Assembly (NCBI GenBank): GCA_020632595.1 | Contig: JACKFF010000006.1 | Location: 1,460 to 65,459 of the forward strand | Length of the DNA stretch: 64,000 nucleotides | Reading direction: 5' to 3' | From: Nitrospiraceae bacterium | Lineage (GTDB): Bacteria; Nitrospirota; Nitrospiria; Nitrospirales; UBA8639 | Part shown: piece after piece, positions 4,799-64,000 of the stretch | Layout: each line of letters begins with the position of its first letter | Numbering within the stretch: the first letter of the stretch is position 1 | Translations under genes and position numbers: made by a program | The notes under the pieces: model-generated | What the model was told of the DNA's origin: nothing | What the model saw: the letters and a program-made list of their open reading frames with translations, nothing else | The model's database searches: none

Positions 4799-7324
4799 TC
4801 ATGAGTTTTTTAATCCTGCTTGCCAAGTGGCAAGCGCCAATAAAGGAAAGTAGTGAGAGTACAAATGGTATTTCAAATAGAAAACGTTGGGGAATCCGGT
4901 TCCAGTCATGAGTTCCTCGTCCCACTCTCCTTGCTGATTCTGATGGGTGAGCAGCCAGTCGATTCCACGATGAACGGGTTTTGAGGTTCGATCGCCAGCC
5001 GCCTCAAGTGCAAGCAGAGCCCAGGCTGTTTGTGAAGGGGTGCTTGATGCTGGAACAAATTCCTGTTTTTCATAGCTAGCACAGCTTTCCCCCCAACCCC
5101 CATCCTGGTTTTGGATTGAGCGTACCCATGTGGCGGCACGCTGGATGGCGGCGTTTGCAGCGGGGGAGCCACTTGCGCGAAGGCCACGCACGGCGAGGAA
5201 TGTCCCATAGGTATAATTTACGCCCCAGCGTCCATCCCAACTCCCATCGGCTTGTTGGTGGCCCAGGAGAAATTGGACGGCACGCGCGATTGCCTGGTGT
5301 TGGTATGTGTAATCACGCCGGCAGAGTGCCTCTAGCACCCGTCCGGTGATATCCGGACAGCTGGGATCAAGCATGGCATTGTGGTCTGCGAATGGGACCT
5401 TATTCAGCAGGGCCCAGTTGTTATCGACATCAAAGGCAGCCCAACCCCCGTCTGAGGATTGCATCCCTAATAACCAATTGATGGCACGACCTTCGGCGCG
5501 GGTCTGCCGGTCGGGATCGGAGGCCTTGGCATGTTGTAGGGCCAACAAGACCATGGCGGTGTCGTCGATATCCGGGTAGAGTTCATTCGCAAATTGGAAA
5601 GGCCATCCTCCAGGTTGCAAATCCGGTCGCTTGACCGACCAGTCTCCTTTGCGGCGAATCTCCTTGCTTAATAGCCAGTCGGCTGCCCGCTGCATGGCTT
5701 GCGGTTCACCAACACCGAGTTCTCCTAATGCAAACATTGAGATAGCGGTATCCCATACGGGGGACAAGCTTGGCTGAAACTGCAAAGCATCTTCTTTCTC
5801 AAGAATGAGTCCTTCAAGCTGCCCTAGTGTGTCAATGAAGTCCGGGTGGTCCCGCTCATAGCCCAGAGCATCCATCGCCATAAGGGCATACATCATTCCC
5901 GGAAAAATTGCTCCCAATCCATCCGTGAACCGCATGTGATCTAACATCCACTTCTCTGCTTCGCGTATCGCCTTAGCGCGAACATCCTTAAATCCCCGCT
6001 TTTCCCAGATTTTTAATATCTTGTCCACCTGATGAAACATGAGAGAAAAGGGATCTTTTCTCGGGAGCCTCAGTTTTCGATTGGGCACCATGAGTTCGTC
6101 AACGGTCCAATTCCCGGGCACGCTGCGTTGTACTCCGGACGCTTGAAGAATGGAAAGGGGGACGACGATGGCCCGACTCCACGATGAAATTTCATACAAG
6201 ACATTCCCAGGGATCAGGACAAGTTCGGGTGGAACGCTTGGAGTGTACTTTCTCGGGAAGAGACCGAACATGCTCAGGTTATTTTTCGTGTAGCTATTGG
6301 TGGCTTGAAGGCCTCCGAGGGCAAGAATGCGTTCACGCGCACGCTGCATAAGTGGTTGGTCGGGATCATAACCACCCACTCGAAGCGCGACGTATGCTCG
6401 GGTGGTGGCGTTAACTTCGGCCGGTCCTTCGGTATAAATGTTCCACCCACCATCTGAAAGTTGCCGGTCAAGGATGGTGCGTATGGCTTCCTTGACTTTT
6501 GTCTGAATTCTGGGCTCCCACGCCCCGTTCTCTGGTGGATAGAGCCAGAGTAAAAGCAACACATAGTCGGATTCCAATGTTGTGTCGGCGGTCAAGTCTC
6601 CCTGCCAAAACCCTTTCGGATTTTGTTTCGCGAGCAGTGCACGCGCAGAGGTTTGGGTGGGTTGGTATGCTTGTCGTTCGAGTTCCTCCACATGTGACTT
6701 AAAGGAAGCCAATTCCGCGATGGCGTCATGAGGCGGTGTGGGTATGGTGGTTGTGGACGTGTCTCTCATGGGTTCTCCTGATTGTGTGTGAGATTGGATC
6801 TCCAAAACAACAGTGGCTCGTTGCTCGCGCGTGGGTGGCGCTAATCCAAGGGCCTCACTGAACCAAAGCCCTTCGACAGCCAGCCGCCCCAAGAGGGAAC
6901 GAGTCGGATCGATGGTATTGGCCAGAAAAATGCTCTGACAATTTTGGTACCGCTCTCGAATGGGTTCAAGTAGGCGGGGATTGATGGAAAACGCCGCCAT
7001 GAGAATGGAGGCAATTTCTTCTCCACGAAGGGACCGATTATGGGCGGGATTGTCGATAATCTCATGGCTAAGAGCCATGCCTGGATGTTCCTCATGAATG
7101 GAGCTAGTGAGAAATTCTCCAACCTGTTTGCGTTCTAAATCCTGGATGAGTAATTCGATAAGCCCCGCGAGTAACTGTTCCTTTCCCTCAAAATGATAGA
7201 GTAAGCCACCTTTACTGATTCCGGCTTCTCGAGCGACATGCTCAAGCGTCAACGCACTGACGCCGTTTCGTCCCAGCAGGTCTATGGCGGTCTCAAGAAT
7301 CAAATGCCGTGTTGAAGTTAGCAT
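4799..7324 (-). CDS. shc: single uninterrupted ORF: TetR-family HTH domain (aa 1-185) followed in frame by squalene-hopene cyclase (aa 186-841)
   Basis: N-terminus LTLEHVAREAGISKGGLLYHF is a TetR HTH. The rest carries repeated QxxxGxW-type motifs (QADGSWDG, QNQDGGWG, QSSDGGWA) and the DIDDTAMV (DxDDTA) catalytic motif of SHC. Confidence 0.8.
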   Translation of the reverse strand: MLTSTRHLILETAIDLLGRNGVSALTLEHVAREAGISKGGLLYHFEGKEQLLAGLIELLIQDLERKQVGEFLTSSIHEEHPGMALSHEIIDNPAHNRSLRGEEIASILMAAFSINPRLLEPIRERYQNCQSIFLANTIDPTRSLLGRLAVEGLWFSEALGLAPPTREQRATVVLEIQSHTQSGEPMRDTSTTTIPTPPHDAIAELASFKSHVEELERQAYQPTQTSARALLAKQNPKGFWQGDLTADTTLESDYVLLLLWLYPPENGAWEPRIQTKVKEAIRTILDRQLSDGGWNIYTEGPAEVNATTRAYVALRVGGYDPDQPLMQRARERILALGGLQATNSYTKNNLSMFGLFPRKYTPSVPPELVLIPGNVLYEISSWSRAIVVPLSILQASGVQRSVPGNWTVDELMVPNRKLRLPRKDPFSLMFHQVDKILKIWEKRGFKDVRAKAIREAEKWMLDHMRFTDGLGAIFPGMMYALMAMDALGYERDHPDFIDTLGQLEGLILEKEDALQFQPSLSPVWDTAISMFALGELGVGEPQAMQRAADWLLSKEIRRKGDWSVKRPDLQPGGWPFQFANELYPDIDDTAMVLLALQHAKASDPDRQTRAEGRAINWLLGMQSSDGGWAAFDVDNNWALLNKVPFADHNAMLDPSCPDITGRVLEALCRRDYTYQHQAIARAVQFLLGHQQADGSWDGRWGVNYTYGTFLAVRGLRASGSPAANAAIQRAATWVRSIQNQDGGWGESCASYEKQEFVPASSTPSQTAWALLALEAAGDRTSKPVHRGIDWLLTHQNQQGEWDEELMTGTGFPNVFYLKYHLYSHYFPLLALATWQAGLKNS
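6767..6780 (-). promoter_or_regulatory. internal Shine-Dalgarno plus ATG at the TetR/SHC junction (CAGGAGAACCCATG)
   Basis: ATG at 6769..6767 is codon 186 of the long ORF, in frame. AGGAG lies 5 nt upstream. Initiation here would give a 655-aa SHC of normal length. Confidence 0.5.
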
Positions 7325-34164: not shown

Positions 34165-34192
34165 ATGCTGGCCGAGCAGGTGATTGCTCAAG

Positions 34193-34226
34193 CCCCCAGG
34201 CAGGTGTTCCTGCCTGGGGGCTTTTT
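34193..34226 (+). terminator. rho-independent terminator after flgE
   Basis: Perfect 12-bp stem CCCCCAGGCAGG / CCTGCCTGGGGG with a 4-nt loop, followed by CTTTTT. Confidence 0.85.
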
Positions 34227-34694: not shown

Positions 34695-35189
34695 ATGGCT
34701 GAAGAGGATGACAAAGGGGAAACTCCCGTTAAAGCCGGGGCCGGAAAAAAAATGTTGTTGATTGTTATCGCGGGCGTTCTTCTTCTCGGTGGAGGGGGAG
34801 GCGCAGCCTGGTATTTTATGAGTGGCCAGGAGGAGAAGCCGGCTGTGTCCGATGAGCATGCCAAAGCCGAGACCGTTCATGAAGAGCCCGGGCCGGTGAT
34901 GGAGTTAGAGCCCTTTCTTCTAAATTTAGCGGATCGGGAGGAGCTGCGATTTTTAAAAGTAAGCATTAAACTCGAGTTGGACCGGCCTGAAGAAAAAACG
35001 GATTATCAACACAAAATCCCGGCCATTCGCGACGCGTTGCTGGTGTTACTGAGTAGCAAAGAGTCGCAATTACTCAGAACAGTGAACGGGAAGCGCCGGG
35101 TGCGAGAAGAAATTATGACGCGGGTGAACGGCGTCATGAGTAAAGGGAAAGTGGCCAATGTGTATTTTACTGATTTTATTATTCAGTAG
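34695..35189 (+). CDS. fliL: flagellar basal body-associated protein FliL
   Basis: Single TM (LLIVIAGVLLLGGGG) and the FLLNLAD...FLKVSIKLEL...VYFTDFIIQ FliL signature. Confidence 0.85.
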   Translation: MAEEDDKGETPVKAGAGKKMLLIVIAGVLLLGGGGGAAWYFMSGQEEKPAVSDEHAKAETVHEEPGPVMELEPFLLNLADREELRFLKVSIKLELDRPEEKTDYQHKIPAIRDALLVLLSSKESQLLRTVNGKRRVREEIMTRVNGVMSKGKVANVYFTDFIIQ

Positions 35190-35281
35190 GGCCTGAGGAG
35201 AAAGACGGAAGAGTCCGGAGTCAGGAATCAGAAAGAGGAGAGAAGAGGCAGCAGGGCTGTTTCTTTGTGCCGCGTCCCAAC

Positions 35282-36760: not shown

Positions 36761-36768
36761 AAACCTAA

Positions 36769-36877
36769 GAGGTGAGGAATGAGGAGTAATGTGTGAGGAG
36801 TAGGATAAAAAAGGAATATGGTCCAAGACGATGGAGGAATCCGTTGTCCTTCCTCCTCATTGTTCACTCCTTACTTT
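36769..36877 (+). repeat. intergenic hairpin element (fliN/fliO spacer)
   Basis: Purine arm GAGGTGAGGAATGAGGAGTAATGTGTGAGGAGTAGGA; pyrimidine arm GTCCTTCCTCCTCATTGTTCACTCCTTACTTT. Confidence 0.6.
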
Positions 36878-37325: not shown

Positions 37326-38101
37326 GACATCCCTTTTGGGGGTTTCGGGGAGGACATGAGTGTTGGCGACTGTTCGGTATGAGTCTGGTCCTGGGGCTGC
37401 CGACCTCGGCTTTTGCCCAGGCCCCCAAGGATCCGGCAATCAGTTTACAGGTATCCGGATTGGACGGAACCGAACCATGGACGTTCGGGCTTCGTATCCT
37501 TTTTCTCCTGACGGCATTAACTCTTGCGCCGGCCCTGTTGATGTTGGTAACGGCATTTACACGCGTCGTGATTGTTCTGGGTCTTCTTCGGCAGGCGTTG
37601 GGGACCATGCATGCACCACCGAATCAGGTGATGATTGGATTGGCCATGTTTTTGACCCTGTTTATTATGATGCCGGTATGGGAGCAGATTCGGGTTGAGG
37701 CTCTTAATCCGCTCTTGGAACAGCAGGTGACACAGGAAGTGGCGCTTGATCGGGCCAAGATTCCGTTAAGAACGTTCATGCTGAAACAAGTACGGGAAAA
37801 GGATTTAACCCTGTTTGTGGAGATGGCGAAAGTTCCTCACCCTCAGACGCCCGATGATGTCCCGTTCCATGTCCTGGTGCCGGCGTTTGTTACCAGTGAA
37901 TTGCGCACCGCGTTTCAAATTGGCTTTCTCATTTATGTGCCTTTTCTTGTCATCGATATGATTGTCGCCAGCATTTTAATGTCCATGGGTATGATGATGC
38001 TGCCACCGATCATGATTTCATTACCGTTTAAATTGGTGTTGTTTGTGTTGGCTGATGGATGGTTTTTGGTCGTGGGAGCGCTGATGAATAGTTTTCAATA
38101 A
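37322..38101 (+). CDS. fliP: flagellar export apparatus protein FliP
   Basis: LTALTLAPALLMLVTAFTRVVIVLGLLRQALG...FLIYVPFLVIDMIVASILMSMGMMMLPP. Confidence 0.9.
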   Translation: MRHPFWGFRGGHECWRLFGMSLVLGLPTSAFAQAPKDPAISLQVSGLDGTEPWTFGLRILFLLTALTLAPALLMLVTAFTRVVIVLGLLRQALGTMHAPPNQVMIGLAMFLTLFIMMPVWEQIRVEALNPLLEQQVTQEVALDRAKIPLRTFMLKQVREKDLTLFVEMAKVPHPQTPDDVPFHVLVPAFVTSELRTAFQIGFLIYVPFLVIDMIVASILMSMGMMMLPPIMISLPFKLVLFVLADGWFLVVGALMNSFQ

Positions 38102-38230
38102 CGTGGGGAGGAAGGCGTAGAGCGTGAGGAGCAAGTAGTAAATAGTAAGAAGTGTATCGAATGCCGGGGGGCAACGATCCGGTTCTTTGTCTGTCTTCTT
38201 CCTGCTCACATTTCACGCCTTACCTTTGAC
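38102..38230 (+). repeat. intergenic hairpin element (fliP/fliQ spacer)
   Basis: 38110-38138 GGAAGGCGTAGAGCGTGAGGAGCAAGTAG against 38195-38225 CTTCTTCCTGCTCACATTTCACGCCTTACC. About 22 of 30 positions pair in a hand alignment. Confidence 0.65.
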
Positions 38231-39365: not shown

Positions 39366-40434
39366 GAATAAAGACGGGGCGGATAAATCCGAGCAACCGA
39401 GTCCGAAGCGTTTAGCGGAGGCTCGTCGCAAAGGCCAAGTGCCGATGACCCGGGAATTGCCTTCGTTGTTTGTGTTGTTGGGCGGGGTTGGGCTGCTGTC
39501 TCTGTGGGCGCCTCACGCCTTTGTCCAATTTTTTGATCATTACCGACAGTGGTTGGCCCAGGCCGGAACCCTTCATTTAGATGCGCAGTCGACACATGCC
39601 TTGTTGTTAAATATTGCCTATCAGGCTTTTGTTCCCCTCATTCCGTTCGGGCTCCTGGTCGGGGTATTCGCCTTTCTCGCCGTTATCCTTCAAACGGGAC
39701 CGCTGTGGATTGAAGAGGCCTTACAACCCAAGCCCTCCAAATTGAATCCCTCCAATGGGTTGAAGCGCATTTTTTCCTGGAAAGGCGTCGTCGACCTTTT
39801 AAAGTCCTTGCTCAAATTAGCAGGGGTGAGTGGCATTGCCTATCTGATTCTGTCTCATAACCTGCTCGCCATTGTTCAACTTCCCCTCCTGGAGTTAACG
39901 GAGGCGGTTGGGGGCGTGTGGGGTCTCCTGGAGAATATTACATGGTCGGTCGGAGGGTCCCTGCTCCTGTTGGCGATCATCGATTTCGTCTATCAGCGGT
40001 GGCAGCATATTGAAGATCACAAGATGACGAAACAGGAAGTAAAAGACGAGTCAAAGGATGTGGAAGGTGATCCGCAGATTCGATCCCGCCGGCTCAGTTT
40101 ACAACGGGAACGCGCCCGACAACGAATGTTGCAGGCGGTGCCTAAAGCCGATGTGGTGATTACCAACCCTACGCACGTGGCGGTGGCACTCAGGTATGAA
40201 ACAGGAAAAATGGACGCTCCGGTGGTGGTGGCGAAGGGCGCCGGATTTATGGCGGAGAAGATTAAGCAAATCGCGCGTCATGCGAACGTGCCGATTATTG
40301 AAAACCGGAGTTTGGCTCGAGGTCTGTATAAGGCGGTGAAAATCGGCCAAGAAGTGCCTAGTGCGTTGTATCAGGCGGCCGCCGAGGTGTTGGCCTACGT
40401 GTATCGCCTGAAGAAAATGCATGGGGGAGATTGA
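39358..40434 (+). CDS. flhB: flagellar export switch protein FlhB
   Basis: SEQPSPKRLAEARRKGQVP N-terminus and the NPTH autocleavage site (VVITNPTHVAVAL). Confidence 0.9.
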   Translation: MAENKDGADKSEQPSPKRLAEARRKGQVPMTRELPSLFVLLGGVGLLSLWAPHAFVQFFDHYRQWLAQAGTLHLDAQSTHALLLNIAYQAFVPLIPFGLLVGVFAFLAVILQTGPLWIEEALQPKPSKLNPSNGLKRIFSWKGVVDLLKSLLKLAGVSGIAYLILSHNLLAIVQLPLLELTEAVGGVWGLLENITWSVGGSLLLLAIIDFVYQRWQHIEDHKMTKQEVKDESKDVEGDPQIRSRRLSLQRERARQRMLQAVPKADVVITNPTHVAVALRYETGKMDAPVVVAKGAGFMAEKIKQIARHANVPIIENRSLARGLYKAVKIGQEVPSALYQAAAEVLAYVYRLKKMHGGD

Positions 40435-40556
40435 AGACGTGAAGCGTGAAAAGTGAAAAGGAAGACGAAAAAAATCAAAAGGAATCAGAAAAAAAACAGA
40501 CTTTTTCCATTTCTTCTTCACTGGTGTCTTCTCGATTTTCACTTTTGGCTTTCCAC
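40435..40556 (+). repeat. intergenic hairpin element (flhB/flhA spacer)
   Basis: AGACGTGA directly after the stop. GAAAAGTGAAAAGGAAGAC (40448-40466) pairs with GTCTTCTCGATTTTCACTTTT (40526-40546). Confidence 0.6.
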
Positions 40557-40639
40557 CCCTGACATAGCAAGAGTGTTAGCAGAGTCCGATGGAGGCAGTT
40601 GGGCAATCTTTGTGAGAGCGGTAACCGATCAGGGCACGC

Positions 40640-47308: not shown

Positions 47309-48286
47309 ATGGCAGGTATGACAAACACTGTCTCCCGAATCCTCTTAGTAGACGATGATGCGTCAAATCTGGATGTTCTAGTCGAATGTCTGAAGGATGA
47401 ACCCTATGAACTTGTTCAGGCCCAGAATGGGGAAGAGGCCTTAACGCATTTGCGAAAGGATGGCCAAGAATTTCATGCCATGGTGTTGGATCGAATGATG
47501 CCGGGGATGAATGGTCTTGATCTTTTGGGGCATCTGAAAGCTGATGAGCGGCTTCAATGGCTTCCGGTTGTGATGCAAACCGCAGCCGGATCTCCCCAAG
47601 AAATAGGCGAAGGGATTGAAGCGGGAGTCTTTTTTTATCTCATTAAGCCCTTTGACCAGCGGCTCCTTTTGCGGATTGTCAACGCCGCGGTTGAGGAGGG
47701 ATTGAAATGGAAACGGATATGCCGAAATCTGCACCAACAGTCTCAGATTGTTGAATTGTTGCAGCAAGGCCGTTTTCACGTTCGTACCATGGAAGAGGCG
47801 TATGATCTGGCATTCCTATTGGGGCGAGCTTGCCCCAATGCAGAAAAAGTTGTGTTCGGGCTAAATGAACTCTTGGCGAATGGCGTGGAGCATGGAAATT
47901 TGGGAATCGGGTTCGATGAAAAAACGGTCCTGCAGGCAAAGGGAACATGGGAGAAAGAAATTCAACATCGGTCTGGGCTGCCTGAGTATGTCCATAAGGT
48001 GGTCGACGTGTTGTTTGAACGGTGTCAGGATTGCATCCAGATCACCATCACGGACCAAGGTTCGGGTTTCGACTGGCGGAAGTATGAACAGATCAACCCG
48101 GACCGAATTTTGGAAAGTCACGGAAGGGGTATTGCGATGGCCAAGGCCCTAAGTTTCTCACGGATCGAGTATCGAGGGAAAGGCAATCAGGTCGTGTGTG
48201 TCATCAAGACTGACTCCCCGATCGGTGATGAAGGGAACTCTTTCGCATCTGAACCGATGGCCGTTCACAAATCGAATCGGGCGTGA
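47309..48286 (+). CDS. response-regulator receiver fused to an RsbW/SpoIIAB-like HATPase (anti-sigma-type serine kinase) domain
   Basis: REC (ILLVDDD...VLDRMMPGMNG...LIKPF), then ELLANGVEHGN...ITITDQGSGFD...HGRGIAMAK. ATG 47309 or 47318. Confidence 0.75.
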   Translation: MAGMTNTVSRILLVDDDASNLDVLVECLKDEPYELVQAQNGEEALTHLRKDGQEFHAMVLDRMMPGMNGLDLLGHLKADERLQWLPVVMQTAAGSPQEIGEGIEAGVFFYLIKPFDQRLLLRIVNAAVEEGLKWKRICRNLHQQSQIVELLQQGRFHVRTMEEAYDLAFLLGRACPNAEKVVFGLNELLANGVEHGNLGIGFDEKTVLQAKGTWEKEIQHRSGLPEYVHKVVDVLFERCQDCIQITITDQGSGFDWRKYEQINPDRILESHGRGIAMAKALSFSRIEYRGKGNQVVCVIKTDSPIGDEGNSFASEPMAVHKSNRA

Positions 48287-48358
48287 GGAGTCATACGTGA
48301 GGGAAAAGCGAATTTGCCCTCTCCAAAAATTTCCCTCCGTATCCTTACTCCTCCCTAC
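48279..48358 (+). repeat. intergenic hairpin element (after the REC-kinase gene)
   Basis: The stop is embedded in GGCGTGAGGAGTCATACGTGAGGGAAAAGCG. Pyrimidine arm TTCCCTCCGTATCCTTACTCCTCCCTAC. Confidence 0.6.
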
Positions 48359-48548
48359 AGGTTGTGGGCATCATGAGAAAAAATGAGTCTGTCTAAAGTA
48401 AGTTTCATTGGTCTCCGAAAGGGATCGTTGTCTCCTGTTTATCTCTTGATAGGTCGTAGGGATTACCCTGGGAATCGTAGCGTCAGATTAGACAGGAAGG
48501 GACGTTGGAAGGTTTACGGTTTTTTTTTACGAAAGATGAGAGGGTAAC

Positions 48549-48903: not shown

Positions 48904-50040
48904 GTGAATGGTGATTGGATGGTATGGATGGGTGTAGTGGTGGCCGGAACCGGAATTGGATATGTCTTGGGCGCCAGGAGCAGGCAGACACGAATCCACC
49001 GGCTGGAACAGCAACTGCAGGAAAGTATTCAGGCTCAGCGCCGTTGGATAGAGAACTGGAAGGCCTTTTGCCAGTGTCTGGCACCGGTGTTTCCGGTATT
49101 TGTGGCACAGATCAAGGCGGTCATTCAAGAAACAGGACAAGCGGCCGACGGATTGATTCAGCGGTTTCAGGCGATTTCACGAAATGCCAGGGAGCAGGTA
49201 GAGGAAACCGAAGCGTTGTTACATATGGCAGATGGGCATGGCGGGAAAGATGACTTTACCGTCGATCGGATCCTACATGACACGCAAAAGACCATCGAAA
49301 TGTTTGTCAAGCAAGTCACACAGACGACCACCGTGACGCTCGCCACGGTGAGTGTGATGGAGCAGGCATTAGAAACCACCTCTCGAATTTCAGAGGTGGT
49401 GGAGGAAGTCGAATTTATTGCCGATCAAACCCGACTCTTAGCGCTCAATGCGGCGATTGAAGCCGCTCGAGCGGGAGAGCATGGCCGGGGGTTTGCCGTG
49501 GTGGCCGACGAAGTGACGAAGTTGGCCAATCGGTCTGCCCAGGCCTCAGAGCAGATTCGTACTCTCGCGACGACGGTGAAAGGCACAACCGAATCGGCCA
49601 TGTCGGAACTCCAGGTGTTGGCGTCGTTAGACTTATCGGAAACGGTAGAAGCTCAGAACCAGGTTTTGGAGATGATTAAGATTATGGGTCAAAAAAATGA
49701 GACCTTAAAAAAGAGCGTTGGTCACAATTCGGGGCGAACCAAAGAACTGGGCAAGGATATCGGACATATTGTGATGTCCATGCAATTTCAAGATATTACC
49801 CGTCAAAAATTAGAGCATGTCTACCAGCCCTTGGAGCGCATTCATGCGCCGCTTCAAGCGGTGGCAGACGATACTGACGGTATAGATATGATGCCGAAGG
49901 TGCTCGAAGAAATCCGGAATCTCGAGCACACCTACACCATGGAGTCTGAACGACTCACGATGCAGTCTGCGCGTTCGGGTCAAGGGACGGTGATGGTCGG
50001 AACCGGCTCGGATGAAGGAGATAACATCACGTTATTCTAA
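48904..50040 (+). CDS. short methyl-accepting chemotaxis protein (one N-terminal TM, no large sensor domain)
   Basis: Signalling hairpin [42 protein letters not shown]. Confidence 0.85.
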
Positions 50041-50102
50041 AGACGTGAGGGGTGAAGGGGCAGGCGTGAGGTGTAATTTTCCACCGTACATCCTTCCGTT
50101 AC
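50041..50102 (+). repeat. intergenic hairpin element (after the short MCP)
   Basis: AGACGTGAGGGGTGAAGGGGCAGGCGTGAGGTGTAA ... CCACCGTACATCCTTCCGTTAC. Confidence 0.45.
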
Positions 50103-50194
50103 TGAATTATGAAAAACTGGGAGGAGTTCGCGGGTTCCATGCTGATCGTACAGCGTCAACAGAGAAATTCACAGAACCAAAGTGAGGTAAAGCT

Positions 50195-50566
50195 ATGGGC
50201 AAGACAGTTTTAGTGGTGGACGATTCCGTCTCGATGCGTCAGATGGTGAGCTTTACGCTGACCGGTGCCGGCTACGAAGTGGTCGAGGCTGGAGACGGAA
50301 AAGAAGCCGTGGATAAACTCAATGGAGGGGCGAAGCCCAGTTTGGTGATTACGGATCTGAATATGCCGAATATGGATGGAATTTCTTTGATTAAGGCGGT
50401 ACGGGGCATGGCTGCCCATAAGTTTACCCCGATTCTTATGTTAACCACCGAGTCCTCTGATGACAAAAAGAAAGAAGGGCAAAGTGCTGGAGCGACGGGG
50501 TGGGTTGTCAAACCGTTCAATCCAGAACAAATGTTAGCCACGATTAAGAAAGTTCTTCCCGGCTAA
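50195..50566 (+). CDS. cheY: chemotaxis response regulator CheY
   Basis: 123 aa. VLVVDDS...VITDLNMPNMDG...VVKPF. Confidence 0.9.
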   Translation: MGKTVLVVDDSVSMRQMVSFTLTGAGYEVVEAGDGKEAVDKLNGGAKPSLVITDLNMPNMDGISLIKAVRGMAAHKFTPILMLTTESSDDKKKEGQSAGATGWVVKPFNPEQMLATIKKVLPG

Positions 50567-50569
50567 GAA

Positions 50570-50697
50570 AAGGTGACGAGTGTGGAGTCTGGAGTGAGAT
50601 TAGAGAAGCAAAACAAAAGAGTCAGGAGAAATCGTATTGTTGCCCCTTACCCCCTGCCTCCATTGAATTGAAGCGTAAGGGGGTGATGAGTGAATGC
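50570..50697 (+). repeat. intergenic hairpin-family sequences (after cheY, before the four-helix-bundle pseudogene)
   Basis: AAGGTGACGAGTGTGGAGTCTGGAGTGAG ... CCCCTTACCCCCTGCCTC ... GCGTAAGGGGGTGATGAGTGAA. CCCCTTAC (50643-50650) pairs with GTAAGGGG (50674-50681). Confidence 0.45.
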
Positions 50698-50982
50698 AGA
50701 AATCCCTAAAGGGTTAAAAAAATCGGGAAGGGAGTTAGTCCCTATGGTCTTCTTTAGACTCACGCAAGGCTTCCCATCTCATGAACCATATTGATTAACC
50801 GGTCCAATTGGCAGATCGGCCTCGGTATACCGGCAAAGATTGCTGAAGGGGCTGCGAGGCAAACCCAAAAAGAGTTCATGCTGTTTCTCCATATTTCCCG
50901 GGGATCGTTGAGCGAGGTAATGACGTTGATCGAGTTGCACGTGGTGTACGATATTTCCCCCAAGAAGCATGACAGACGATAG
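50678..50982 (+). pseudogene. four-helix-bundle protein (23S rRNA intervening-sequence protein family), apparently frameshifted
   Basis: The C-terminal part (50791..50982) reads GIPAKIAEGAARQTQKEFMLFLHISRGSLSEVMTLIEL, matching the IPxNIAEG...KEF..FL.IA.GSL.E family signature. The N-terminal part (..LVPMVFFRLTQGFPSHEPY*) lies in another frame and ends at 50792-50794. Confidence 0.5.
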
Positions 50983-51090
50983 AGGGCCAACGCCATTTTA
51001 CCGGGAAGACGATCACGGGACTCATTAAACAATTCAAGTATATATACGCTGTAACGCTACACAAGTAAGAGCGAACAAGGGAAGCCATCT

Positions 51091-51160
51091 ACGGTGAAAC
51101 GGTGAGGAAGAAGAGGCAGGCACTGCTTACTCCTTATCCTTCACTCCTTACCAAAAGGAG
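51091..51160 (+). repeat. intergenic hairpin element immediately upstream of cheA, overlapping its SD
   Basis: ACGGTGAAACGGTGAGGAAGAAGAGGCAGG ... CTTACTCCTTATCCTTCACTCCTTACC. CTCCTT (51144-51149) can alternatively pair with the cheA SD AAGGAG (51155-51160). Confidence 0.6.
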
Positions 51161-51168
51161 TTTATTCA

Positions 51169-53274
51169 ATGGCAGTTGATCTTTCACGGTTTCAAGAGTC
51201 ATTTTTTACTGAATCCGCAGAACATGTCGAAACCATCGAATCCGGTTTGTTGGCGTTAGAGCAACGTCCGAACGACCTGGACTTATTGAACCGAATTTTT
51301 CGGGGCGCTCATTCGATTAAAGGCAATGCGGGGATGTTTCATTTTACGGCCATTGCCGAGTTGACTCACAAAATGGAAAACATTCTGGATGACCTCCGGA
51401 ATGAAAAAATGCCGGTGACCCCTCACATCATCGATGTGCTGTTACGGGCGCTGGACGGATTAAAAAACCTTTTGGATGCGGCGCAGGGAGGTGAGGCAGC
51501 AGATGAGGCGGCCATTCACGTCCTAGAAGGTGAGCTGGATGCCTGTCAGAAAGGAAGGCCCGCTTCTGCACAGGAGGGGGCTTTTGCTGAAACCGGTCCC
51601 CAGGCTTTTCCACTTCAAGCCGCCACGTGGCGAAGGGTCCAGATTGATTGGAGTGCCTTGCCGGAATTATTTCAACGAGGGATGGATCCCGCCCAGATTT
51701 TCAAGGAACTGCATGAGTTGGGTATGGTGAAGACGCTGCATGTGCGAACCGACGGTCTTCCGGCTTTGGATGCACTCGATCCAGAACGGTGTTATCTCGG
51801 TTGGAGGGTGGAATTGGAAACGGATGCTCCTATCGCCCAGATCGAGGAGGTGTTTGCGTTTGTCCGAGATGGGAGCGAGTTAGCCATCATCGATTGCGCA
51901 CCGAAAAAACCGGAACCCTATAAACGGGTGGGGGATATTCTGGTGGAAGAAGGCGTGGTGACTCCGGAGCAAATCGCCGAAAGCCTGGCCAAGCAAAAGC
52001 CTCTTGGCGAAATTCTGGTGGAAGAGAAAAAGGCGTCTCCCCAACAAGTCCATCAAGCGCTGCAGAAGCAGCAGCAATTGAAAAAAAATGAGGTGGCATC
52101 TATTCGGGTCGATACGGAAAAGATCGATAAATTAATCAATCTGGTGGGGGAATTGGTGATTACGCAATCGATGATTACCGACCTGAGTGAGAAGTTTACC
52201 CTCGCGCAGCTCCCGGTTCTCCAGGAACGGATAACCCAATTGGAACGTAATACCCGGGAGATACAAGAACGGGTCATGTCCATTCGAATGATGCCGATCG
52301 GAAGTGCCTTCCACCGATTCCCGCGGTTGGTTCGGGATCTCGCAGGGAAAAGCGGCAAGCAGATTCAATTGGTCATGTCAGGAGAGGAAACCGAGTTGGA
52401 TAAAACGCTGATCGAGGCGATTGGCGACCCGCTCACCCATCTGGTTCGCAATTCAGCCGATCATGGGTTGGAGTTACCCGAAGAACGGGTGGCTCAAGGC
52501 AAACCGGAACGAGGAACCATTCGTCTCCATGCGTATCACGATGGCGGCAATATTTGTATTGCCGTGGAGGATGACGGGCGAGGGCTGAACCGGGAAAAGA
52601 TCATTAAAAAAGCCATCGAAAAAGGGATCATTGCCGATGGCAGCAATATGTCGGATGAAGCCGTGTATCAACTGATTTTTCGGCCTGGATTTTCCACGGC
52701 AGAGACCATCACCGATGTGTCAGGTCGAGGGGTGGGGATGGATGTGGTGAAGCGGAATATCGAGGGTCTTGGCGGGTCAGTGGACATTCAGAGCACGATG
52801 GGAAAAGGTTCTCGCCTCACGCTGAAATTGCCGCTTACGCTGGCCATTATTGACGGGATGACCGTCCGGGTCGGTCAGGATAACTACATTATCCCGCTTA
52901 TTGCGGTCACCGAATCCATTCGCCCTAAACCCAATGAGTTGCAACGGATTGTGGGAAAAGGCGAGGTGGTCAATCTTCGTGGAGAATGGGTGCCGGTGGT
53001 CAAGCTCTATGAGGCGTTTGCCCTCACGCCAGACTTTACCGATCCCTCGCAGGCTTTGTTGGTGATCGTGGAAACCGATGGCCGGCGATTGGCCGTGCTC
53101 GTGGATGAACTGACGGGGCAACAACAAGTGGTCATTAAGAGTTTGGAACAAAATTATCGCAAGGTCGAGGCTATTTCCGGAGCCACCATTCTGGGGGACG
53201 GACAGGTCGCGTTGATTTTGGATGTGCCGGGATTGGCCAAATTGGCACGGGTTGGCCACATTGCGGCGGCATAA
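51169..53274 (+). CDS. cheA: chemotaxis histidine kinase CheA
   Basis: HPt FRGAHSIKGNAGMF, dimerisation and HATPase domains (HLVRNSADHG, DDGRGL, GRGVGMDVV), and a CheW-like C-terminus. Confidence 0.95.
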   Translation: MAVDLSRFQESFFTESAEHVETIESGLLALEQRPNDLDLLNRIFRGAHSIKGNAGMFHFTAIAELTHKMENILDDLRNEKMPVTPHIIDVLLRALDGLKNLLDAAQGGEAADEAAIHVLEGELDACQKGRPASAQEGAFAETGPQAFPLQAATWRRVQIDWSALPELFQRGMDPAQIFKELHELGMVKTLHVRTDGLPALDALDPERCYLGWRVELETDAPIAQIEEVFAFVRDGSELAIIDCAPKKPEPYKRVGDILVEEGVVTPEQIAESLAKQKPLGEILVEEKKASPQQVHQALQKQQQLKKNEVASIRVDTEKIDKLINLVGELVITQSMITDLSEKFTLAQLPVLQERITQLERNTREIQERVMSIRMMPIGSAFHRFPRLVRDLAGKSGKQIQLVMSGEETELDKTLIEAIGDPLTHLVRNSADHGLELPEERVAQGKPERGTIRLHAYHDGGNICIAVEDDGRGLNREKIIKKAIEKGIIADGSNMSDEAVYQLIFRPGFSTAETITDVSGRGVGMDVVKRNIEGLGGSVDIQSTMGKGSRLTLKLPLTLAIIDGMTVRVGQDNYIIPLIAVTESIRPKPNELQRIVGKGEVVNLRGEWVPVVKLYEAFALTPDFTDPSQALLVIVETDGRRLAVLVDELTGQQQVVIKSLEQNYRKVEAISGATILGDGQVALILDVPGLAKLARVGHIAAA

Positions 53275-53365
53275 GGAAGAAGTGGAAGGTTAGGAATGAG
53301 GAGTAAGGAGGTAAAGAAACGGGAAAAGAAAGAATCGGATCAAATGCTTTCTTGCGCCCTACTCC
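53273..53365 (+). repeat. intergenic hairpin-family sequence (cheA/cheW spacer), purine arm dominant
   Basis: AAGGAAGAAGTGGAAGGTTAGGAATGAGGAGTAAGGAGGTAAAG ... GCTTTCTTGCGCCCTACTCC. Confidence 0.45.
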
Positions 53366-54034: not shown

Positions 54035-56272
54035 ATGAACAGGATGGTGAACACAAATTTCAGTTTGGGGATTGCAACCAAGTTGGTGGTGTTGTTCGCC
54101 ATCTTTGGCATAGTGCCGATGGCCGCGGTGGGGTATTTAGGGGCTTCCGCTACGGGGGAAATGGAAACAGCCGCCGGACTGCGCGTGCAAGCGATGGCTG
54201 AGACCATTGGAGATAAAATCGACCGTAATTTATTCGAACGGTATGGGGATCCTCAATCCTTTGGTCTTAATAGGATCGTGGGTGAGCGCTACCATTGGTA
54301 CAGCAAGGAGAATAATGCGATAGCGAGTGCCATGAATCAATATGTCGCGACTTCCGGAATTTATTATTTGACGATATTGGTAGATCCTGCTGGAGATGTC
54401 ATGGCTGTGAACTCAAAGGATGCCAAAGGGAATCCGATCGACACCACGGCAATTTATTCAAAAAAATATACGGACGCTCCCTGGTTTAAGGCGGTGGAAG
54501 CGAAAGAATTTACCACAAGACAACCCTTTACGAGCCCCGGCAATGATACGGCGACCGGGACCTACATTGAAGACGTTCATGTCGATGAAGATGTGAAGTC
54601 GGTGTATTTGGGAGATGACGGGTTGACCTTGGGTTTTTCTGCTCCGGTGTATGTGGATGGCGATTTGATCGGGTATTGGACCAATCGGGTCAAATTTTCT
54701 TTGGTGGAAGAAATCGTGCAATCCGCTTATCAAGAGCTTAAAGGGGCCGGATGGATGGGGTCGGAAATTTCTCTGCTCGGAGATAAGGGGCAGGTCATCG
54801 TGGATTTTGATCCCTCCAATCAAGGCACAGAGGACATGACCCATGATTTTGAAAAGACGTTGTTTAAACTCAATCTGGCAGACAATGGAGTAGAAACGGC
54901 AAAATTCGCCGTTGCTGGAAAAACAGGCTATCAATTAGCCCTCCATGATGAGAAGAACATCTGGCAAATGGGTGGCTATACCCATCTGAAAGGCGCCTTA
55001 GGCTATCCGGGTATGAATTGGTCTGTCCTGGTGAGAGTTCCTAAAGCCGAAGCCACTGCTGCGGCCATTGCATTTAATCGAGATTTAACCATTACCGCCA
55101 TTATTTGTCTGGTTCTGATTTTGGTCGTTGGATTGTGGGTTGGTCGTCGTGGTGCAAATAATCTGGTTCAAATTAGCGAAGTGGCTCAACGGGCGGCCGA
55201 TGGAGATTTGAGTCGGCGGGTCACCGTGATGTCCAATGATGAATTGGGAACCATGGGCAAGGCGATGAATGTCATGTTGGATAATTTGGTGAGAGTGGTA
55301 TCGGAAGTCCGCCAGGCTGCGGAACATGTCTCTATCGCATCAGGTGAAATCACCCAAGGTAATGAAGATCTCTCGCAACGCACCTCGGCTCAGGCAGGCG
55401 CCTTGGAGGAGACCAGCGCGTCGATGGAAGAGATGACGTCCACCATCAAGCAAAATGCCGATAACGCCAAGCAGGCCAACCAATTAGCGGTGGCCGCCCG
55501 GGAAGTGGCAGAGAAGGGGGGCGCGGTCACGGACAAGGCTGTGGTGGCCATGGATGAGATTAATAAGAGCAGCAAGAAGATCGCGGATATTATTAACGTG
55601 ATCGACGAAATCGCGTTTCAGACAAACCTTTTGGCACTCAATGCTGCCGTGGAAGCTGCACGCGCAGGTGAACAAGGCCGGGGTTTTGCTGTGGTGGCCT
55701 CGGAAGTGCGAAATCTGGCACAACGTTCGGCCTCGGCTGCCAAGGAGATCAAGACACTGATCAATGAATCGGTGCAAAAAGTTGGTGACGGCAGCGAGTT
55801 AGTGAATCGCTCGGGCCAGACGCTGGGCGAGATTGTGAATTCGGTTAAACGAGTCACGGATATTATTTCGGAAATCAGTGCGGCCTCCCAGGAGCAGGCT
55901 GCGGGGATCGATCAGGTGAACAAGTCGGTGATGCAGATGGATCAGGGCACGCAGCAGAATGCGGCCTTGGTAGAGGAAGCTACGTCGGCTTCCCAATCCA
56001 TGAAGCAGCAAGCGACTGAACTGTTGAATCAAGTCGCATTTTTTAAATTAGAAGATACAGAACAAAAACGGGTTGCAGGGACACAACCCGGATCGGGAGC
56101 CAAGGTTGCGCTTTCAAGTGGCAATAATTCCTCCGCCATGAGTAAGCCTTTACATTCAGTGAAGGGTGTCCTCCCTCCAAAGGCCACGGCGAAGACTCAA
56201 CCGGTTGGCGTGGGCAGTTCGAATGGCCATGACCGCCGTCAACGTCAGGATGATTTTTTTGAAGAGTTTTAG
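54035..56272 (+). CDS. methyl-accepting chemotaxis protein with a ~300-aa periplasmic (Cache-like?) domain and HAMP
   Basis: Two TMs, HAMP ([19 protein letters not shown]), the signalling domain, and a C-terminal DDFFEEF. Confidence 0.9.
55379..56047 (+). repeat. 669-nt signalling-domain block, copy 1 (paralogous to 57367-58035)
   Basis: Encoded peptides are almost identical ([55 protein letters not shown]...). DNA differs mostly at synonymous sites. Confidence 0.9.
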
Positions 56273-56410
56273 AAGACGTGACGGGTCAATCGTGAGGGGA
56301 GAGACGAAATGACAGAAAAGAGGGAGCCTGATGGCGTTGCCTTTTCGGGCATCCCGGCCGGTTGGTAGGGGGGATCCATCCTACGCCTTACGGTTCACCC
56401 CTTACGCGGG
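56273..56410 (+). repeat. intergenic hairpin element (between the two large MCP genes)
   Basis: AAGACGTGACGGGTCAATCGTGAGGGGAGAGACG ... CATCCTACGCCTTACGGTTCACCCCTTACGCGGG. Confidence 0.6.
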
Positions 56411-56460: not shown

Positions 56461-58269
56461 ATGGGTAAAGTATGGAACTCAATAGGCATCGGTCCAAAGG
56501 TGGTGATGACTATTATGGTGGTCTTTTCAAGTTTACTTGCAGGGGGAGCGTATTTGCTCGGACAGCAATTGCATTCCGATCTTGAACGGGTCTTGTCCGA
56601 TCAGGCGTATATTGTTCAAAAGCAAATTGAGGTCACTCGTGCCTATGTGACCAAAGAGTTTGTGGTGAAAGCCAAGGCGGCTGGGATGAATACCGGGGTT
56701 GACCATAGTGCTCCCGATACGGTTCCCTTTCCGGCCACATTTGCTCGTGAAACCTCTGAAATATTGGCTGAGGAAGGCGTGTTTAATGCCAGGATCGTGA
56801 GTCTCTCGCCCCTGAATCCCAAAAATGCTCCGCAAGATTCCTTTGAGAAAGACGCCCTAGCTGCCCTGGCTGCCGGCCAAAAAGAATTTACCAGAAACGA
56901 TACCGTGAATGGGAAAATGATGTTCCGCCGTGCGACCCAGGATTTGGCGACGGTCCAAGCCTGCATCGGCTGTCATGAGGGCAAAAAAATCGGGGAAATG
57001 CTGGGAGCTGTATCGGTACAGATTCCCATGGATGGTCCCGCTGCCCAATTACAAGGGAATCTCAGTAATATGTATATGGGGATTCTGGCCGTGGGCTTGT
57101 TGATGATGGGGCTGTTGTATCTGATGATTGCGAAGTTGGTGGTCAAGCCGATGAAGAGTCTGGAGTCCATGGCGGAGCGAGCCAAGGAAGGAGATCTCAC
57201 CGGTCGGGCCAGCGTGAACAGTCAGGATGAAATCGGTCGAACCAGTGAATCGTTTAATATGATGTTTGACCGGGTGAGTGAAGTCATTGGGTCTGTCAAA
57301 ACAGCTGTTTCCGGCATTACGACCGGGACTTCCGAGATAAATGCAGGAACCTCCGATCTTGCCGGGCGAACCTCGGCGCAAGCAGGAGCCCTGGAAGAAA
57401 CCAGTGCGTCCATGGAAGAGATGACCTCTACCATTAAACAGAATGCGGATAACGCCAAACAGGCGAACCAATTGGCGGTGGCCGCCCGGGAAGTGGCGGA
57501 GAAGGGTGGCGCGGTCACGGACAAGGCCGTGGAGGCCATGGATGAAATCAATAAGAGCAGCAAGAAGATCGCGGATATTATTAATGTGATCGACGAAATC
57601 GCGTTTCAAACGAATCTCTTAGCTTTGAATGCAGCGGTGGAAGCGGCACGGGCGGGCGAGCAGGGACGAGGTTTTGCGGTAGTGGCTTCGGAAGTGCGAA
57701 ATCTGGCGCAACGTTCTGCCACGGCGGCCAAGGAGATTAAGACGCTGATCAACGAATCGGTGCAAAAAGTTGGCGGTGGCAGTGAGTTGGTCAATCGCTC
57801 GGGCCAGACGCTGGCCGAAATTGTGAACTCGGTCAAACGGGTCACGGATATTATTTCAGAAATCAGTGCGGCTTCCCAGGAGCAGGCGGCGGGGATTGAT
57901 CAAGTGAACAAGGCGGTGATGCAGATGGACCAAGGCACACAACAAAATGCGGCCTTGGTGGAACAGGCGACTTCAGCGTCCCAATCGATGGCGCAACAAG
58001 CTGAGGATCTGTTGCGGCAGGTCGAGTTTTTCAAGGTCCAGACTGAGTTCGGGACTCAACGTTCTGAGCCTATGGCAAAAACCGGCTCATCCGTTCACGC
58101 TCAATCGACGAGCGGAACGGGGTCTCAATATTCTCGTGCGGCCTCGTCTATGACTGGTAAAGCTCAGGGAAAGCATTTCCCCACTAAAAAAGAGGTCGCT
58201 GTGGGTGTTGGGAGTTCGGGGTCCAACGGGCATAAAAAGCCAGGGGATGATTTTTTTGAAGAATTTTAG
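56461..58269 (+). CDS. methyl-accepting chemotaxis protein whose periplasmic domain is a Tll0287/DUF3365-like c-type heme module
   Basis: TM1, a ~190-aa periplasmic region with CIGCH (CxxCH) followed by [10 protein letters not shown]2, HAMP ([18 protein letters not shown]), the signalling domain, and a DDFFEEF tail. Confidence 0.85.
57367..58035 (+). repeat. 669-nt signalling-domain block, copy 2
   Basis: See 55379-56047. Confidence 0.9.
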
Positions 58270-58416
58270 AAGACTGTTCATAACTTGGACCTGGCGAAAA
58301 GGGGAAATCATGACTCCCACTTCAACGCCTGTGAAATTCTCTCCTAAAGTTGGATCCATTTTTCCCGAAAACCTGGGGAGGATTCTATGAGTGTTTATTA
58401 ACATTGTGTTTAAACC

Positions 58417-58497: not shown

Positions 58498-59043
58498 ATG
58501 ATTATGAGGAGATGGACTGTATTTTCACTAATGTTTGTCATGTTAGGTCTTGGCTTTGCCTTGGTTGCGCCGCTAGGTCTAGCCGCAGACGCGGCTAAGG
58601 AAATGGCGGCCAAGTACATCTTGGCTACCTCTAAGGCTGCCAGAACCGTGTATGTCAAGGGGATTATGGCCGACGCGACCAAAGGTGGAATGAAACCGTC
58701 TGAAGATTGGGTGAAGGATGACCACGGCATGATGCTGCCGGCTCAGTTCGTGAAAGAACTCGGGAAAGAAATAAAGGAGTTTGATTTGTCTTTGGTTGGG
58801 ACCGATCCCTTGTATGCCTCCAATGCCGCGAAAAGTGCCAAGGAAAAGGACATGCTCGCGGAATTAGCCAAAGGAAAAGAAAAAGTATTAGTGGCGGAAG
58901 ATGGCGGAGTGACGGTCGGTATGTCGGCCGATTATGCTATCGCGGACATTTGTGCTGATTGCCATAACTCACACCCAAAAACCACCAAAAAAGATTGGAA
59001 GAAGGGTGATTTTATGGGAGCCATTGTGGTGCGACTGAGATAA
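58498..59043 (+). CDS. periplasmic Tll0287/DUF3365-like c-type heme protein
   Basis: Signal peptide (WTVFSLMFVMLGLGFALVAPLGLAADA), CADCH heme-binding motif, then GAIVVRL. GGAGGAGG precedes the start (ATG 58498 or 58504). Confidence 0.7.
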   Translation: MIMRRWTVFSLMFVMLGLGFALVAPLGLAADAAKEMAAKYILATSKAARTVYVKGIMADATKGGMKPSEDWVKDDHGMMLPAQFVKELGKEIKEFDLSLVGTDPLYASNAAKSAKEKDMLAELAKGKEKVLVAEDGGVTVGMSADYAIADICADCHNSHPKTTKKDWKKGDFMGAIVVRLR

Positions 59044-59108
59044 TAAAGTTTTAAGATCATTTTCTTGAGAGAGGCTGGGAGGGCTTAGATGCTTTCCTCG
59101 CCTTTCTC
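58931..59108 (+). repeat. direct repeat A (3' end of the heme-protein gene plus downstream hairpin)
   Basis: Aligns by eye at ~80% with 61514-61697, including a long identical core AAAAAAGATTGGAAGAAGGGTGATTTTATGGGAGCCATTGT. Confidence 0.8.
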
Positions 59109-61513: not shown

Positions 61514-61630
61514 GATTATATTGCCTGAAGGTGACAATTGTGCCGATTGCCATAACAAACACCCCAAAACTACCAAAAAAGATTGGAAGAAGGGTGATTT
61601 TATGGGAGCCATTGTTGTCAGACTGAAATA
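61514..61630 (+). pseudogene. remnant of a Tll0287-like heme-protein gene (C-terminal ~35 codons only)
   Basis: Reads ..GDNCADCHNKHPKTTKKDWKKGDFMGAIVVRLK*, a copy of the C-terminus of the 58498..59043 gene. No upstream coding continuation. Confidence 0.65.
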
Positions 61631-61697
61631 ATTTCGTTTTACGACCAATCGTCTTGAGAAAGGGCGGGGAGGGTATCACAACCTTCCTCGCCTTTTT
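61514..61697 (+). repeat. direct repeat B (partner of 58931-59108)
   Basis: See repeat A. Confidence 0.8.
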
Positions 61698-61854: not shown

Positions 61855-62045
61855 AAGAAATCTGTTTCTTGCATCCATTCCGGATTTTTTCACTTCATTG
61901 AGCCCCTGGAACGGAAATCTTCCAGCGGAAATATGGCTATCGAAAATATTTTATGGGAGTGGGTTTTTGTCGGAATGACCACGGCCTATGGTCTTTCCCT
62001 TTGACGTCCTATGTAGTCTATGGGTTGTGGTTTCTATTGGTTCCA

Positions 62046-62133
62046 GGAAGGGTGAGTAGCAAGGCGTAAAGGGGATGTGCGGTGTTTTTTTCACGACTCC
62101 TTCCTGTTCACTCCTCACTATCAATCCCTTTAC
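62046..62133 (+). repeat. hairpin element in the cheR leader (2)
   Basis: GGAAGGGTGAGTAGCAAGGCGTAAAGGGGATGTG ... CACGACTCCTTCCTGTTCACTCCTCACTATCAATCCCTTTAC. Confidence 0.55.
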
Positions 62134-63008: not shown

Positions 63009-63098
63009 GGGAGAGGGCAAAGGGGAGAGTGGTTAGGCGTGGAGGATCGGAAGCACTCATCACTTTTCTCATGCTCCTGACTGTTCACTCCTTACTTT
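62997..63098 (+). repeat. intergenic hairpin element (cheR/cheD spacer)
   Basis: The stop is embedded in GTGAGGCGTAGGGGAGAGGG...GGTTAGGCGTGGAGG. The pyrimidine arm ends TGTTCACTCCTTACTTT, a 17-mer identical to 36861-36877. Confidence 0.6.
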
Positions 63099-63107
63099 AA
63101 GGAAATT

Positions 63108-63716: not shown

Positions 63717-63724
63717 GGAAACAC

Positions 63725-64000
<276 letters not shown>

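Follow-up and report, generated by a model that had tools for sequence, protein, structure and literature searches.

In Coxiella burnetii, the intervening sequence (IVS) of the 23S rRNA has a 28-bp terminal stem and a decaying open reading frame (ORF) of the 23S-rRNA-intervening-sequence, or four-helix-bundle, protein family (PMC4990558). It carries two or three tandem copies of the heptamer GACAGAT, the number varying between strains, and the first repeat is the site of RNase III cleavage (PMC4990558). A heptamer array, (ATCTTTC)n, also forms one arm of a hairpin in the 5' untranslated region of Haemophilus influenzae hmw1A, where RNase III cleavage changes expression (PMC12721329). Further tandem heptamers have been described in Xanthomonas (GGGAATC, with some 70 inverted pairs in each genome), in cyanobacteria (short tandemly repeated repetitive [STRR] sequences) and in Beggiatoaceae (TAACTGA), all with unknown function (PMC4692102; PMC4679880). 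Here, we describe a family of heptamer hairpins lying in the spacers of the flagellar and chemotaxis (fla/che) gene cluster of a Nitrospiraceae bacterium, within a stretch of 64,000 nucleotides (contig JACKFF010000006.1, positions 1,460 to 65,459; the whole stretch is referred to below as the window), and relate it to genes of the same four-helix-bundle family as the IVS protein.

The copy located between cheY and cheA resembles the 23S IVSs with an S23p ORF of C. burnetii and Leptospira in having a decay-prone ORF of the same family in its loop, terminal inverted repeats that give a long stem, tandem heptamers of variable copy number at the 5' side, and a sense-orientation insertion in a transcribed region. 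It differs in that the hosts here are operon spacers between protein-coding genes and not a 23S rRNA helix (9, 25, or 45), that most copies are ORF-less, that the heptamer is GTRAGGN instead of GACAGAT, and that excision by RNase III is presumed. The likeness to hmw1A is that there, too, heptamers make up one side of a long purine/pyrimidine hairpin, which lies in an mRNA leader immediately 5' of a gene; that system, however, is a single phase-variable locus, its other arm is a nonrepeat G-rich stretch, and the abstract mentions no associated protein gene. STRR-type arrays are similarly tandem, intergenic, numerous within a genome, sometimes arranged as convergent pairs capable of forming stem-loops, and found across phyla, but their unit sequences differ, the TAACTGA arrays are mostly direct repeats beside start codons, and the reports draw no link between the arrays and four-helix-bundle genes ("S23" has 0 occurrences in PMC4692102). 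A full-text literature search for the repeat sequences themselves returned no relevant paper, and in the collection searched, which gives no proof of novelty, no paper was found that connects non-rRNA four-helix-bundle genes with heptamer arrays in inverted pairs or that reports ORF-less copies from the spacers of operons. We consider it reasonably probable that the window hairpins are ORF-less relatives of the IVS cassette, in which a four-helix-bundle (TIGR02436) gene is enclosed by inverted heptamer arrays, and that they are transcribed as long hairpins that are probable substrates of RNase III.

At least eight hairpins of 70 to 145 nt occupy spacers of this Nitrospirales cluster, whose gene names FliN, FliO, FliP, FliQ, CheY, CheA, CheW, CheR, and CheD were confirmed by Pfam. 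The assignment of the window to Nitrospirales (phylum Nitrospirota) is borne out by its FliP and CheW homologs. Each element consists of a purine array, (GTRAGGN)n, a variable loop, and a complementary pyrimidine array, (NCCTYAC)n, with the units arranged as tandem heptamers. At least six copies of the 3' arm align as one family, and the 5' arms likewise align. The eight hairpins fold at -21 to -50 kcal/mol with stems of 23 to 49 predicted pairs, and the fold z-scores were -4.1 and -3.5 for the two best and +0.2 to -1.3 for the remainder. The features read from the arrays, from folding (minimum free energy [MFE]), and from orthologs are as follows, including those that concern Shine-Dalgarno (SD) sequences and the genes for methyl-accepting chemotaxis proteins (MCPs).

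36766 to 36877, plus strand: fliN-fliO hairpin, with purine array, loop, and pyrimidine array ending in an exact copy of the 17-mer described below (MFE -47.2 kcal/mol, z -4.1).
38101 to 38226, plus strand: fliP-fliQ hairpin, beginning at the fliP stop codon (MFE -49.8 kcal/mol, z -3.5).
40433 to 40570, plus strand: flhB-flhA hairpin of the GTGAARN variant, its 5' AAGACGTGA on the stop codon, absent in three relatives (array reading, folding, ortholog comparison).
48280 to 48360, plus strand: hairpin 3' of a response-regulator gene, whose TGA lies within the first GTGAGG unit.
50039 to 50110, plus strand: decayed element in the MCP-cheY spacer, its purine array opening with AAGACGTGA; a clear hairpin is present here in locus L208.
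50566 to 50700, plus strand: purine arrays 3' of the cheY stop, which make up the upstream flank of the IVS-protein cassette.
50791 to 50982, plus strand: decayed gene for a 23S-rRNA-intervening-sequence/four-helix-bundle protein (PF05635, E value of 7e-11; TIGR02436, E value of 1.6e-10), intact in loci L208, L209, and L211.
51091 to 51154, plus strand: short purine arm and pyrimidine array of three to four units, which make up the downstream flank of the cassette (folding; ortholog L051).
51143 to 51161, plus strand: local 7-bp hairpin ACUCCUU/AAGGAGU predicted to sequester the cheA SD (-7.3 kcal/mol; probability that the SD is unpaired, 0.02 with or without the purine arm).
53272 to 53340, plus strand: purine array of a decayed element in the cheA-cheW spacer; a well-formed hairpin is present here in L211 and L208.
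56272 to 56310, plus strand: 5' half-element in an MCP-MCP spacer, with its AAGACGTGA start on the stop codon.
62040 to 62121, plus strand: hairpin upstream of cheR, with a two-mismatch copy of the 17-mer.
63009 to 63098, plus strand: cheR-cheD hairpin ending in an exact 17-mer, the last unit of which pairs with the cheD SD in the predicted fold.
63719 to 63822, plus strand: cheD-cheB hairpin (GTAAGGT GTAAGGC GTGAGGA ... GCCTCAC TGTTTAC TCTTTAC).

A sequence-only reading of this DNA had recognized hairpins whose purine-rich, SD-like 5' arms begin at or just after stop codons, and these proved to be real. It had also placed an exact 17-mer, TGTTCACTCCTTACTTT, at 36861 to 36877 and 63082 to 63098, with variants at 62105 and 51140, and all four were read back as described, the copy at 62105 to 62121 having two mismatches. 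The chance expectation for this 17-mer in the window is 0.10, and three or more matches occurred in 0 of 100 shuffles. The arm that it marks consists of the last units of the NCCTYAC pyrimidine array. A purine arm said to start at 53299 was found after the cheA stop as claimed, although its sequence, GAGGAGTAAGGAGGT, starts one position earlier, at 53298, which is 24 nt 3' of that stop. The element start AAGACGTGA occurs four times in the window against 0.5 expected, and three of these occurrences sit at stop codons where elements begin. Since every common variant of the purine unit carries a stop codon (TAA in GTAAGGA, TGA in GTGAGGA, and TAG in GTTAGGA), three purine units close all three frames; the leading arm was also seen to shut all frames in both reading directions. 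The half-elements at 53272 to 53340 and 35189 to 35260 leave their purine arms unpaired. An Rfam scan of the whole window detected no family, rRNA included, and the 16S 3' end sequence GATCACCTCCTT had no match in any fetched locus.

The connection to the IVS protein was made in the cheY-cheA spacer. The decayed ORF there lies 110 nt upstream of the purine arm at 51091; among the window elements this copy alone has an ORF of the PF05635/TIGR02436 family, the other window hairpins being ORF-less. An intact gene of the family was found exactly between cheY and cheA in three relatives (L208, 7373 to 7714; L209, 7359 to 7742; L211, 7322 to 7639), while the gene is decayed in the window (50566 to 51169) and in L210. 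Because the relatives keep the intact gene in this position, 51091 to 51154 is taken to be the downstream flank of a decayed IVS cassette between cheY and cheA. It is odd that a supposedly selfish ORF is held in synteny within a chemotaxis operon across Nitrospirales genera. Homologs detected by phmmer/HMM searches of the fetched loci L110, L043, L122, and L027 were all bracketed by arrays, in the layout purine array, ORF, and pyrimidine array, followed by the SD and the ATG start codon of the gene downstream. The sequence AAGACGTGA also opens the IVS-protein cassettes in L208, L124, L147, and L201. The array type and this start are thus common to the cassette and to the other window hairpins, and for that reason the latter are read as its ORF-less relatives.

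The association was also found in a sample of 80 metagenomic loci, which were picked solely for encoding the four-helix-bundle protein and from which 67 flanks on each side were scored. Period-7 arrays were present within 150 nt in 32 of 67 upstream and 27 of 67 downstream flanks, compared with 4 of 178 control segments, and a stricter score gave period 7 in 44 of 147 flanks and period 8 in 11 of 147. The heptamers vary by locus (GTGAATA, CAGGAAT, GGTTGAT, AGTACCC, GTGAGTG, GTGAGGC, and others), but the arrays on the two sides are reverse complements of each other. When the flanks were compared by local alignment, 61 of the 67 cassettes showed at least 16 Watson-Crick pairs, with a median of 27 as against 17 in mismatched-locus controls; RNAduplex applied to 150-nt flanks was uninformative, its shuffled background being too high. 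The IVS-protein genes were co-oriented with their neighbors (47:9 upstream and 44:14 downstream) at median gaps of 63 and 67 nt, and with such orientation and short gaps they are embedded in operons.

Comparison of orthologous spacers revealed rapid turnover. The flhB-flhA spacer measures 205 nt in the window and 211 nt in L203, as against 8, 17, and 5 nt in L204 to L206, and in L207 it is 128 nt long and holds a different heptamer. Likewise, the fliP-fliQ spacer measures 160/143 nt versus 23/68/45 nt. Where FliP is still 96% identical, the arms have already diverged in the sequence and the number of their units, with the element-free fliM-fliN spacer almost unchanged, and the fold z-scores of orthologous spacers span -4.6 to +2.2. 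Spacers of 249 nt (L204, 7073 to 7323) and 190 nt (L207, 7180 to 7371) were observed between fliQ and fliR, where the window has about 50 nt, and these are other insertions, at a spacer that is empty in the window. Judged from such comparisons, the turnover looks like insertion followed by decay, unlike a maintained riboregulator. The elements sit within operons in sense orientation, come and go between related genomes, and have arms that change fast and decay. In the mechanism that we propose, the fresher copies, once transcribed, would form imperfect double-stranded stems of 20 to 45 bp. By analogy with the rRNA IVSs and the H. influenzae hmw hairpin, these stems would be probable RNase III substrates at which polycistronic mRNA may be cut and segmented. 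Where a pyrimidine unit happens to abut an AAGGAG-type SD, as at cheA and cheD, its probable effect is to damp initiation, which we take for a local by-product rather than a designed switch.

The arrays themselves are spread beyond this lineage. A scan for the pattern CTCCT-N5-TTCACTCCTTAC, taking one genome per species, returned at least 119 stretches. Among the 119 listed, many were from Nitrospirota, and the others came from Desulfobacterota, Gemmatimonadota, Planctomycetia, Nitrospinota, Betaproteobacteria, Acidobacteria, Selenomonadaceae, and more. Strict arrays of at least three units were present in about 80 of those listed, typically as purine array, loop, and pyrimidine array, so that as a class the elements are head-to-tail heptamers, intergenic, in many copies, and in multiple lineages. 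Among the loci with arrays, the purine array preceded the pyrimidine array in a ratio of 20:0 when at least three units were required and 53:1 when at least two were required. This order is uninformative about the direction of transcription, because purine-then-pyrimidine reverse-complements to itself. The same ratios rule out the purine arm as a ribosome-binding site of the downstream gene, as the purine array is always the distal arm. The start of the enclosed ORF abuts the purine array in L110, L208, L209, and L211 (the distance overall is 0 to about 110 nt), and in these cassettes the array might serve the enclosed ORF as a ribosome-binding site. In other Nitrospirota the elements lie in flagellar/chemotaxis spacers, probably at orthologous positions, and also in murG-murC, peptidase-HSP20, proB, and uvrA contexts. 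A motility-specific regulon was considered and is weakened by the murG-murC, proB, HSP20, and uvrA contexts.

A different role had been proposed in the sequence-only reading, namely, that the pyrimidine arm imitates the 16S rRNA 3' tail and pairs alternately with the purine arm and with the SD of the next gene, so that termination on the upstream gene, by melting the purine arm, would set downstream initiation. The pairings on which it was built are in place: CTCCTT (51144 to 51149) faces AAGGAG (51155 to 51160) before the cheA ATG at 51169, and CCTTA-CTT-TAAGG (63090 to 63102) precedes the cheD ATG at 63108. Both local SD hairpins appear in the MFE structures (-7.3 kcal/mol for cheA and -3.6 kcal/mol for cheD), the close relative L051 has the very same cheA hairpin, and the purine arms begin 0 to 10 nt past stop codons, all of which speak for a switch. 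In addition, in silico masking of the purine arm lowered SD accessibility from 0.58 to 0.16 at fliO and from 0.42 to 0.09 at cheB, so that competition between arms is possible at these two genes in the folding model. The mimicry itself, however, did not survive a unit census of the window and nine orthologous Nitrospirales loci retrieved through proteins (37 arrays, 129 units). None of the 37 arrays contained the anti-SD core CCTCC, and 5 contained CTCC. GCCTTAC (14 of 129 units) and GCCTCAC (13) were the commonest units, followed by TCCTCAC (9), and TCCTTAC was found only twice. What stays constant in the unit is YAC (GTR on the opposite arm), not the anti-SD core. Related cassettes elsewhere carry unrelated heptamers such as GTGAATA, AGTACCC, and GGTTGAT. 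Nor did the three-partner arrangement hold. The cheA and cheD SDs have a predicted probability of being unpaired of 0.02 to 0.04 whether the purine arm is free or masked, because a spare unit pairs them, and SD pairing and purine-arm pairing coexist at both genes in silico instead of excluding each other. No real gene ends beside the arm at 51091, where an upstream ribosome was supposed to melt it: the nearest upstream stop is that of the decayed ORF, 110 nt away, and the cheY stop is 525 nt away. In the predicted folds the arm pairs with the downstream SD at cheA and cheD and does so in part at fliO and cheB, but not at fliQ, flhA, STAS, or cheR, where the arms lie 36 to 190 nt from the start; the arm ends within 20 nt of the start codon in only four of the eight elements. 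The pairing is also not conserved, the cheA SD hairpin being common to the window and L051 only. In L208 and L209 the AAGGAG SD of cheA is kept and the pyrimidine arm is absent, in L210 and L211 the SD is GAGG, and the cheD arm lies 45 to 55 nt from the start codon in L208 and L211; moreover, hairpins are absent or decayed in orthologous spacers. Hairpins that sequester an SD, and translational coupling through RNA structure, are a general phenomenon. The cheA and cheD leaders share with them a short hairpin predicted to bury the SD under the last pyrimidine unit, but here the partner is a repeat unit that is not conserved, and the upstream arm neither opens nor closes the pairing. These local hairpins are best seen as incidental; a conserved ribosome-sensing switch is unsupported, and we regard it as quite improbable.

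Of the remaining explanations, selfish or slippage-generated repeats that act purely at the DNA level, with no RNA-level role or consequence, would account for the presence/absence pattern and rapid arm turnover, for the decay of many copies, and for the lack of a G-U versus A-C strand bias. Heptamer arrays, including inverted pairs, are moreover abundant in intergenic regions with no known function (PMC4692102; PMC4679880). Yet the elements lie within operons and are necessarily transcribed, the sense strand folds 10 to 14 kcal/mol better than the antisense strand in four of the eight, a constraint linked to transcription is suggested by the invariant array order and by the sense orientation in which the enclosed gene lies, and RNase III has been seen to cleave heptamer stems of a comparable kind in two systems; we therefore hold this explanation to be unlikely. 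Titration or recruitment of an RNA-binding protein (of the CsrA type, a cold-shock protein, or the pentameric four-helix-bundle protein) by the GGA-rich purine arm is suggested by the many A(N)GGA motifs, which are unpaired in half-elements, by the enrichment of elements in the fla/che part of the window, by the homology of the four-helix-bundle protein to the nucleic-acid-binding protein Avd of diversity-generating retroelements, and by the binding of cold-shock proteins to heptamer repeats (reviewed in PMC4679880). It seems highly improbable given that the GGA motifs of full elements are in stems and not in loops, that related cassettes use GGA-less heptamers, that the family is also found beside non-motility genes, and that csrA and fliW genes are not in the window; CsrA regulation in particular was set aside on this last ground and because the GGA motifs are mostly in stems. 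Stabilization of mRNA is the least probable of the explanations weighed. Repetitive extragenic palindromic (REP) hairpins protect upstream cistrons, and STAB-SD runs hold 30S subunits and block 5' decay. An intercistronic position, stable stems in the best copies, and SD-like runs without a start codon directly after stops would suit either kind of stabilizer, but stability is not conserved across orthologs, the SD-like motifs are mostly base paired, and no terminator-like features are present. REP sequences are, in addition, palindromes of 20 to 40 nt with a GTAG head and an associated REP-associated tyrosine transposase (RAYT), whereas the elements here are 70 to 145 nt and heptamer-built, and no transposase gene lies in the window.

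Several points weigh against our own reading of the hairpins as ORF-less cassette relatives that are processed by RNase III. RNase III cleavage is proposed here by analogy only, and any effect on expression, like mobility, is likewise conjectural. Derivation of the ORF-less hairpins from ORF-bearing cassettes is suggested by the shared termini and layout, to be set against the reverse direction or mere co-occurrence. In many copies complementarity reaches only about 71%, and the fold is no better than that of shuffled sequences. On the sense strand, G-U versus A-C stem mismatches numbered 20 versus 13 in the window (P = 0.30) and 101 versus 90 in the cassette flanks, and because this bias is not significant it gives no positive sign of selection at the RNA level. 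The at least 10 heptamer elements in the fla/che part of the window are confined to 35 to 64 kb, and none was found in about 12 housekeeping spacers at 1 to 22 kb (moaC/E/A, accD, folC-like, lptD, and squalene-hopene cyclase). Finally, the same che spacers carry elements in different genera. This persistence and the fla/che concentration could point to a further function; together with the strict purine-then-pyrimidine order and the better sense-strand folding of four elements, they leave room for a role in processing, in binding a protein, or in serving the enclosed ORF.

With these points in mind, reading the hairpins as cassette relatives connects 23S rRNA IVSs and their orphan protein with unexplained intergenic heptamer repeats and with long intercistronic operon hairpins. 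Should the link be general, the four-helix-bundle family (TIGR02436) would gain a testable genomic context, IVS-type elements would appear not to be rRNA specific, and RNase III processing sites would be predicted inside the flagellar and chemotaxis operons of nitrite-oxidizing Nitrospirales. We tentatively put forward, as a possibility well short of a favored conclusion, that array-bracketed four-helix-bundle (23S-IVS, Avd-like) genes form one widespread cassette class that colonizes transcribed spacers (rRNA helices in certain bacteria, operon spacers across many phyla) and leaves behind ORF-less hairpins that would explain at least part of the STRR-type repeats; the pentameric protein may recognize its own array, and RNase III processing may belong to the life cycle. 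For annotation, purine runs that resemble an SD and follow a stop codon in genomes of this kind should be taken as repeat arms and not as ribosome-binding sites.

Further observations were made in the window. As for intrinsic terminators, no element was called as one, and terminator-like sites were at chance level. What looks like a classical terminator, a G+C-rich inverted repeat of 15 perfectly matched bp around a 4-nt loop with TTTTT behind it, was seen at 34190 to 34223, 26 nt past a gene end at 34164 and ahead of a 530-nt spacer before fliL. Two MCP paralogs share a near-identical terminal 30-mer (56248 to 56277 and 58245 to 58274), which extends past the stop as far as AAGAC. The first copy continues as the AAGACGTGA element start; the second halts at AAGACTG and could represent a site that is empty or truncated. 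A 300-nt repeat of 86% identity (55379 to 55678 and 57367 to 57666) is shared between the signaling domains of adjacent tandem MCP paralogs. A 115-nt direct repeat of 87% identity (58945 to 59059 and 61533 to 61647) and a 33-nt repeat (59073 to 59105 and 61663 to 61695) trail the ends of two Tll0287-like/chlorite-dismutase-like genes, each followed by a pyrimidine-rich run, and this appears to be a duplication of a 3' gene end together with its downstream region. The longest ORF, at 4799 to 7324 on the minus strand, joins TetR_N/TetR_C domains to a squalene-hopene cyclase and probably represents two adjacent genes merged by naive ORF calling, with a fusion as the alternative.

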